From Escherichia coli (GTDB lineage: Bacteria; Pseudomonadota; Gammaproteobacteria; Enterobacterales; Enterobacteriaceae): a stretch of DNA of 64,000 bases. The stretch lies in NCBI RefSeq assembly GCF_029227855.1, contig NZ_CP074356.1. The stretch is one strand, 5' to 3'. The notes beneath the pieces are model-generated. The model did no database searches, was not told the DNA's origin, and was given only the letters and a program-made list of their open reading frames with translations. Shown here in pieces: positions 34,004-35,968 of this stretch (its first letter is position 1; each line of letters begins with the position of its first letter). The position numbers and the translations under genes were made by a program.

Positions 34004-35968
34004 GTGAGCATGGATATAAGCGATTTTTATCAGACATTTTTTGATGAAGCGGACGAACTGTTGGCTGACATGGAGCAGCATCTGCTGGTTTTGCAGCCGG
34101 AAGCGCCAGATGCCGAACAATTGAATGCCATCTTTCGGGCTGCCCACTCGATCAAAGGAGGGGCAGGAACCTTTGGCTTCAGCGTTTTGCAGGAAACCAC
34201 GCATCTGATGGAAAACCTGCTCGACGAAGCCAGACGAGGTGAGATGCAACTCAACACCGACATTATCAATCTGTTTTTGGAAACGAAGGACATCATGCAA
34301 GAACAGCTCGACGCTTATAAACAGTCGCAAGAGCCGGATGCCGCCAGCTTCGATTATATCTGCCAGGCCTTGCGTCAACTGGCATTAGAAGCGAAAGGCG
34401 AAACGCCATCCGCAGTGACCCGATTAAGTGTGGTTGCCAAAAGTGAACTGCAAGATGAGCAGAGCCGCAATCAGTCGCCGCGACGAATTATCCTTTCGCG
34501 CCTGAAGGCCGGGGAAGTCGACCTGCTGGAAGAAGAGCTGGGGCATCTGACAACGTTAACTGACGTGGTGAAAGGGGCGGATTCTCTCTCGGCAATATTA
34601 CCGGGCGACATCGCCGAAGATGACATCACAGCGGTACTCTGTTTTGTGATTGAAGCCGATCAGATTACCTTTGAAACAGTAGAAGTCTCGCCAAAAATAG
34701 CTACCCCACCTGTGCTTAAACTGGCAGCCGAACAAGCGCCAACCGGCCGCGTGGAGCGGGAAAAAACGACGCGCAGTAGTGAATCCACCAGCATCCGTGT
34801 AGCGGTAGAAAAGGTTGATCAATTAATTAACCTCGTCGGCGAGCTGGTCATCACCCAGTCCATGCTTGCCCAGCGTTCCAGCGAACTGGACCCGGTTAAT
34901 CATGGTGATTTGATTACCAGCATGGGGCAGTTACAACGTAACGCTCGTGATTTGCAGGAATCAGTGATGTCGATTCGCATGATGCCGATGGAATATGTCT
35001 TTAGCCGTTATCCCCGGCTGGTGCGTGATCTGGCGGGAAAACTCGGCAAGCAGGTAGAACTGACGCTGGTGGGCAGTTCTACTGAACTCGACAAGAGCCT
35101 GATAGAACGCATTATCGACCCGCTGACCCACCTGGTACGCAATAGCCTCGATCACGGTATTGAACTGCCAGAAAAACGGCTCGCCGCAGGTAAAAACAGC
35201 GTAGGAAATTTAATTCTGTCTGCCGAACATCAGGGCGGCAACATTTGCATTGAAGTGACCGACGATGGTGCAGGGCTAAACCGTGAGCGAATTCTGGCAA
35301 AAGCGGCCTCGCAAGGTTTGACTGTCAGCGAAAACATGAGCGACGACGAAGTCGCGATGCTGATATTTGCACCAGGCTTCTCCACGGCAGAGCAGGTCAC
35401 CGACGTCTCTGGGCGCGGCGTCGGCATGGACGTCGTTAAACGTAATATCCAGGAGATGGGCGGTCATGTTGAAATCCAGTCGAAGCAGGGTACTGGCACT
35501 ACGATCCGCATTTTACTGCCGCTAACGCTGGCCATCCTCGACGGCATGTCCGTACGCGTTGCGGATGAAGTTTTCATTCTGCCGCTGAATGCTGTTATGG
35601 AATCACTGCAACCCCGCGAAGCCGATCTGCATCCACTGGCCGGCGGCGAGCGGGTGCTGGAAGTGCGGGGTGAATATCTGCCCATCGTCGAACTGTGGAA
35701 AGTGTTCAACGTCGCGGGCGCGAAAACCGAAGCCACCCAGGGAATTGTGGTGATCTTACAAAGTGGCGGTCGCCGCTACGCCTTGCTGGTGGATCAATTA
35801 ATTGGTCAACACCAGGTTGTGGTTAAAAACCTTGAAAGTAACTATCGCAAAGTCCCCGGCATTTCTGCTGCGACCATTCTTGGCGACGGCAGCGTGGCAC
35901 TGATTGTTGATGTCTCCGCCTTGCAGGCGATAAACCGCGAACAACGTATGGCGAACACCGCCGCCTGA
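34004..35968 (+). CDS. cheA: Chemotaxis histidine kinase CheA (CheA-L)
   Basis: 654 aa from GTG ([10 protein letters not shown]) within the 672-aa track ORF; in-frame ATG at 34295 with SD aagga corresponds to the CheA-S start (Met98). Confidence 0.9.

Follow-up and report, generated by a model that had tools for sequence, protein, structure and literature searches.

The gene cheA lies between motB and cheW in the window (the whole stretch of Escherichia coli DNA that was analysed, 64,000 nucleotides long), within a region annotated as the flhDC / motAB-cheAW / tar-tap-cheRBYZ cluster. Its product is a CheA orthologue with the P1(Hpt)-P2-P3-P4-P5 architecture, for which Pfam gives matches to Hpt (residues 8-100), CheY-binding, H-kinase_dim, HATPase_c and CheW. 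The DNA is chromosomal E. coli sequence: of 5426 complete genomes of this species, 5380 have a match to 2.3 kb taken around codon 98 of cheA, and strain JNEC-KY178 is 100% identical there. Over its full length, the window departs from this genome (NZ_AP045174.1, the best match in the database) at eight SNPs and one 1-bp indel. These differences are found at positions 9519, 18716, 30360, 30541, 30962, 50843, 51412, 55593 and about 62236, and the 1-bp difference falls within an A-run in the yebB-yobI intergenic region.

Full-length CheA (CheA-L) begins at a GTG at 34004, referred to here as start(L), which is the start given by RefSeq in the nearest genome and in K-12, and whose Shine-Dalgarno element (SD) is strong in related loci (median duplex -7.1 kcal/mol). 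A mechanical list of open reading frames runs the gene further upstream, up to a TTG at 33950 (672 aa; 33950-34006 in the window), and the databases hold CheA entries labelled E. coli of 675 or 707 aa (P0151-P0153), lengths that start-codon over-extension might explain. Several read-archive assemblies also contain MotB-CheA fusions of 868-964 aa, formed by an OmpA-family domain and full CheA (P0196, P0208, P0216, P0222, P0223 and P0242), presumably produced by frameshifts or misassembly at the 4-nt junction between motB and cheA.

The genes motA, motB, cheA and cheW form one operon, and the sigma-28-type match upstream of motA is the probable source of an mRNA bearing all four. Matches to the sigma-28 (FliA) consensus occur at 36579-36605, 31993-32019, 6313-6339 (- strand), 6413-6439 and 8265-8291, and precede tar (a perfect match), motA (inside the 3' end of flhC), fliD, fliC and fliA; in total, the pattern has 43 occurrences at up to 3 mismatches versus about 16 expected. 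Regarding RNA families, the Rfam matches above the gathering score in the window are the MicL sRNA inside cutC (49848-50155, +), the C0465 RNA in the cheW-tar interval (36512-36589, -), the ES036 sRNA in the fliC-fliA interval (8062-8103, -) and a tRNA Gly-Cys-Leu cluster (17988-18290, +).

Table 1. Coordinates of the features of cheA and of its surroundings in the window
Feature	Position	Strand	Remarks
Sigma-28-type promoter match upstream of motA	31993..32019	+	TAAACTTT...GCCGATAT, 2 mismatches vs consensus
SD of start(L), GAGGTGA	33993..33999	+	Overlaps the motB stop TGA (33997-33999)
start(L), GTG	34004..34006	+	Annotated in the nearest genome and K-12; GTG in 73/80 related loci
cheA full-length CDS (CheA-L)	34004..35968	+	GTG start, 654 aa; translation, Pfam domains, RefSeq annotation of a near-identical genome
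His48 codon CAC	34145..34147	+	Autophosphorylation site, CheA-L only; within the Pfam Hpt match
Decoy, GAGGTGAG and ATG of codon 81	34236..34246	+	Stronger SD-like motif, but not a start
AU-rich stretch, codons 88-97 (ATC AAT CTG TTT TTG GAA ACG AAG GAC ATC)	34265..34294	+	Synonymous constraint
SD-like AAGGA (Lys95 AAG and GA of Asp96)	34286..34290	+	Anti-SD duplex -5.4 kcal/mol
start(S), ATG of codon 98	34295..34297	+	In frame; Met98 in 81/81 Enterobacterales loci
Nested CheA-S CDS	34295..35968	+	557 aa, stop common with CheA-L; matches the second K-12 CDS, NP_416402.2
cheZ	42291..42935	+	Annotation; phosphatase bound and localised by CheA-S (PMC2644175, PMC3676780)

A sequence-only reading of this DNA had placed an internal start, for a short CheA isoform lacking the phosphorylation site, at codon 98 of cheA (start(S) in Table 1). 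The position and the frame are borne out by the sequence and the translation, since 34004 + 97 x 3 = 34295, which makes the ATG codon 98 of the frame opened by start(L). The SD that it described is also there, although not at the 5-nt spacing given: the letters between AAGGA and the ATG are CATC (4 nt), and 5 nt are obtained only by counting from AAGG, which is a counting convention and no error of substance. A spacing of 4 nt after AAGGA is rather short. The absence of His48 from the isoform likewise holds, given that its CAC codon lies upstream of the ATG, and a protein without this residue is not capable of autophosphorylation.

The same site can be followed in detail in K-12 MG1655, whose RefSeq record (NC_000913.3) gives cheA (b1888) two CDSs, 1973360..1975324 (654 aa) and 1973360..1975033 (557 aa), the second beginning exactly 97 codons downstream of the first. 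The gene, the codon, the length of the product, the operon context and the downstream cheZ are all the same in the window, although the strain is another one and its cheA differs from that of K-12 by 31 nucleotides and 5 amino acids (P149L, S156N, S233A, N259S and K484E, none near start(S)). There is no difference over nt 223-445 of the gene, so both strains share the same start(S) region and the same residues 98-148. Within E. coli, the 61 nt centred on start(S) are identical in 5371 of 5378 genomes, and three control 61-mers from cheA show differences in 376, 49 and at least 479 genomes. One genome labelled E. coli, SCPM-O-B-8794 (L002:1501-3465), carries a cheA 9% divergent from that of the window (178/1965 nt), which is far above the typical divergence in E. 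coli and may indicate a cryptic Escherichia lineage; its longest run free of differences, nt 255-341, spans start(S). A further fragment, 89% identical, comes from a read-archive contig.

The short protein encoded from this codon in K-12 is a known system (Smith & Parkinson 1980 and Kofoid & Parkinson 1991, as cited in PMC7696710). CheA-S is initiated at ATG-98 and is eliminated by the M98L change (PMC7696710), and no CheA-S is expressed from CheA-M98I (PMC2644175). The identity of codon 98 as the established CheA-S start is in this way supported by the second CDS of K-12, by the identical sequence and by the mutational literature, and this start is already known, textbook and annotated in the reference genome; the main text of the Ribo-RET preprint does not mention cheA. 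CheA-S is probably expressed in the source strain as well. It is also correct that an ORF track does not reveal this start: in the nearest genome, PGAP annotates the long CDS alone, whereas the curated K-12 record includes both, so that recognising the site restores a real proteoform.

To what extent does the motif itself, an SD followed by an ATG, single out codon 98? The 17 nt upstream of each internal in-frame ATG in 64 annotated genes of the window were scored for pairing with the 3' end of the 16S rRNA, and the medians of the anti-SD duplex were -6.0 kcal/mol for the annotated starts and -2.1 for the internal ATGs. The value at codon 98 is matched or beaten by 25 of the 463 internal ATGs (5.4%), and about one site as good is expected per cheA-sized gene. 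The codon-98 motif alone is no more than chance, and because about 5% of internal ATGs score as well, a motif of this kind cannot find such starts alone. Together with the fact that AAG-GA is plain Lys-Asp coding sequence, these counts could be taken to mean that Met98 is an ordinary internal methionine following purine-rich Lys-Asp codons, with no initiation in the source strain. That is very improbable, given the dual CDS annotation of K-12 and the sequence identity with it, the effects of M98I and M98L (PMC2644175, PMC7696710) and, as described below, the lineage-specific presence of Met98 where the family norm is Leu and the coincidence of the deepest synonymous constraint and the highest accessibility of cheA exactly at codon 98. 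Codon 98 exceeds chance only with this outside evidence, that is, the identity with K-12 and its annotation plus the comparative signals.

For the comparison with relatives, a codon alignment was built from the window and the best 80 loci from other Enterobacterales genomes, with Salmonella not among them. Met98 is invariant in these 81 loci, a count somewhat biased by the way in which they were collected, as one of the six peptide patterns used (ETKDIMQE) includes Met98; seven loci with EAKDIMQ, found by other patterns, still have it. An exhaustive search with the P1 domain, free of that bias, agrees with a lineage-specific Met: of 67 CheA P1 representatives in the 45-70% identity range, 60 carry Leu at position 98, and most of the others carry Leu, Ile or Val. 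Since Leu98 is the norm in distant CheAs and CheA-L with M98L works, Met98 is not a structural requirement of the fold, and the strict retention of ATG98 in Enterobacterales without such a need speaks for a role in starting translation. The P1 search also returned giant proteins with tandem Hpt-like stretches (P0001 and P0003; 4858 aa (33) and 1950 aa (15)), and the best 120 matches of a word-indexed protein search were E. coli entries only, with no Salmonella CheA.

The nucleotides that precede codon 98 carry a signal of their own. For synonymous diversity, the codon mismatches observed among sequences with the same residue were divided by those expected, in 9-codon windows over the 81 loci, and the minimum of this ratio for the whole gene is at codons 89-97 (0.385, versus a median of 0.885), below codons 1-9 at start(L) (0.477) and codons 646-654 at the cheW ribosome site (0.62). 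A 9-codon window that low appears anywhere in 0.08% of column shuffles (frequency 0.0008, in a test without correction for phylogeny). Codon by codon, the dip spans codons 88-97, directly 5' of ATG98, with TTT and GAA fixed in 81/81 loci, CTG in 78/81 and AAA in 77/81. Accessibility, taken as the predicted probability of finding nucleotides -9 to +3 (12 nt) free of pairing and averaged over the 81 mRNAs, peaks at codons 96-98, which are among the top four of 645 positions in cheA; the predicted value at codon 98 is 0.14-0.18 (0.14 in the window itself), and 195 of 200 shuffles of the 161 nt around start(S) fold more stably than the real sequence. The stretch 34265-34294 is, from its constraint and predicted openness, the probable ribosome-loading region of start(S). 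Another short run of constrained codons is found at 104-106 (34313-34321), 18-27 nt downstream of ATG98, where Lys106 is AAA in 80/81 loci and Tyr105 has an observed/expected ratio of 0.31, and it may mark where the initiation region ends on its 3' side. As for the dip at codons 646-654 (35939-35968), the cheW start at 35989 is just 3' of it, and it is consistent with the ribosome-binding region of cheW and translational coupling.

These signals are relevant to codon 81 (ATG 34244-34246), where, with GAGGTGAG upstream, the duplex reaches -6.5 to -7.2 kcal/mol against the -5.4 of codon 98, and where Met81 is present in 75/81 loci. On such grounds the short isoform might be thought to begin at codon 81 instead of codon 98, and from sequence alone the two codons are indistinguishable; the choice of codon 98 in the sequence-only reading rested on established knowledge. 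Nevertheless, the SD-like motif of codon 81 is not conserved (median -3.0 across loci), codons 76-83 show no synonymous constraint, its predicted accessibility is 0.0013 in the window (rank 571/645), a change of codon 98 alone abolishes CheA-S, and K-12 annotates codon 98, all of which leaves a codon-81 start a practically negligible probability. Between them, the invariance of Met98, the constraint and the accessibility mark codon 98 and account for codon 81 not serving as a start despite its higher SD score. This is also a lesson in method: synonymous constraint, mRNA accessibility and a lineage-specific Met picked the right codon and rejected the one with the better motif.

Could the short CheA be, alternatively, a proteolytic fragment of CheA-L and not a translation product? 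Proteolysis is a generic alternative for any gel doublet, nothing was found in its favour, and the likelihood that it applies here is minimal: M98I and M98L are conservative changes, and in the K-12 derivatives that carry them the short CheA is lost while CheA-L is still functional (PMC2644175, PMC7696710). Furthermore, a protease site would give no reason to expect the synonymous constraint seen upstream of codon 98. Smith & Parkinson 1980 reportedly still obtained CheA-S when a nonsense codon was placed between codons 1 and 97. Taken as a whole, the ATG of codon 98 is almost certainly start(S), a second and independent initiation site in the cheA frame on the motA-motB-cheA-cheW mRNA.

A different matter is whether codons 88-97 have an additional or distinct role at the RNA level, for instance as the site of an sRNA, of a protein or of an RNase, or as a pausing signal, which would be compatible with initiation at codon 98. 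Specific codons are favoured there (the TTT, GAA, CTG and AAA mentioned above) and not merely those ending in A or U, the patch at codons 104-106 is a second constrained element, and the ratio between both forms shifts with the growth phase (PMC1447658), which suggests regulation. Against this, the position, the length and the AU-richness of the stretch are in keeping with a site of translation initiation, a dip of the same kind occurs at codons 1-9 next to start(L), and the Rfam search of cheA gave no known RNA family, nor was there a terminator match at the constrained stretch; such a role is, on balance, unlikely. The promoter search near start(S) gave no sigma-70-like or sigma-28-like match, so that neither a promoter-like site nor an Rfam family offers another explanation of the constraint. 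Two further candidates were rejected: an internal promoter giving a separate CheA-S transcript finds no support in that same result, and programmed frameshifting at the U-run G UUU UUG was dismissed on inspection, the heptamer not being canonical and no notable alternative-frame ORF following on the + strand.

The ribosome-binding determinant that can be read in the window consists of AAGGA, 4 nt upstream of ATG98, in an AU-rich, accessible and constrained region, although the AAGGA part is nearly specific to Escherichia. Lys95 is AAA in 77/81 loci, where the sequence reads AAA GAT/GAC ATT/ATC ATG; the common version in relatives, ACC AAA GAT ATT ATG, lacks AAGGA and has a best anti-SD duplex of only -3.3 kcal/mol. 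AAG at Lys95 is restricted to E. coli, the divergent SCPM-O-B-8794, one Enterobacter and one Cedecea, and the complete AAG GAC ATC, whose use in place of AAA GAT/GAC ATT/ATC creates the SD, is present among the 81 loci in the window and that divergent genome only, and is essentially fixed within E. coli. Judging by the alignment, AAGGA is not a conserved feature of start(S) across Enterobacterales, whereas Met98 and the CTG TTT TTG GAA stretch are kept in the 80 related loci as in the window. Since the SD is weak in 77/81 loci, the conserved determinant of start(S) is more likely the upstream U/A-rich open stretch. This agrees with reports that true starts in E. coli are marked by upstream regions rich in A and free of structure even where SD pairing is lacking, possibly via protein S1 (PMC7043885).

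From all this, a model can be proposed in which a single mRNA, presumably from the sigma-28-type match upstream of motA, would carry start(L) and start(S). Ribosomes loading at the GTG would make CheA-L, and those loading directly at AUG98 would make CheA-S; the former would use a GTG with a strong SD, and the latter an ATG whose SD is weaker and whose surroundings are open. Internal loading would take place through the poorly structured AU-rich stretch of about 30 nt, probably aided in Escherichia by AAGGA. The product without residues 1-97 would lack most of the P1 phosphotransfer domain and keep its end (helix E) and P2-P5, and it would recruit and stimulate CheZ, the CheY-P phosphatase, at the receptor clusters.

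The part assigned to CheA-S in this model follows the literature, where it is described as CheA without its first 97 residues, which localises CheZ (PMC8563088, PMC3676780) and binds to it (PMC2644175, PMC3676780). It forms homodimers or heterodimers with CheA-L, joins the receptor clusters and stimulates the bound CheZ (PMC2644175, PMC3676780, PMC1447658), and the CheA-L:CheA-S ratio moves from 4:1 to 1:1 during growth (PMC1447658), even though, according to the literature, CheA-S is dispensable for basic chemotaxis. Helix E is named as the CheZ interface in the title of O'Connor et al. 2009, an entry of the reference list of PMC8563088. Both partners appear to be available in the source strain, as cheZ is found about 6 kb downstream in the window and the CheZ-binding helix E of P1 is predicted to be intact, residues 98-148 being identical to those of K-12.

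CheA-S is not an isolated case. The co-expression of CheA-L and CheA-S in other Enterobacterales is credited to McNamara & Wolfe 1997, as cited in PMC3676780, and the IF2 isoforms of infB and SsaQ of Salmonella have been grouped with CheA as internal-start proteoforms (PMC11005335, PMC12350097). In them, as in CheA-S, a second start lies inside the ORF, the frame and the stop are shared, and the protein without the N-terminal domain has a distinct role, although these genes and proteins are unrelated to cheA and the resemblance is one of mechanism, not of homology.

With the start itself being known, what is added here is only mildly new, namely the signature of constraint and accessibility, the lineage-specific Met98 and the SD specific to Escherichia. 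Read jointly, and tentatively, as we consider the whole somewhat less probable than its opposite, they suggest that start(S) in Enterobacterales may use the AU-rich unstructured stretch of about 30 nt and not a canonical SD; that Escherichia may have secondarily recoded AAA-GAT-ATT into AAG-GAC-ATC, creating AAGGA and maybe shifting the balance between CheA-L and CheA-S; and that Met98 might be an innovation of Enterobacterales, acquired as a start codon at a position that is Leu elsewhere. CheA-S is among the classic bacterial examples of a single reading frame yielding two proteins, the shorter of which helps to place CheZ at the chemoreceptor array.
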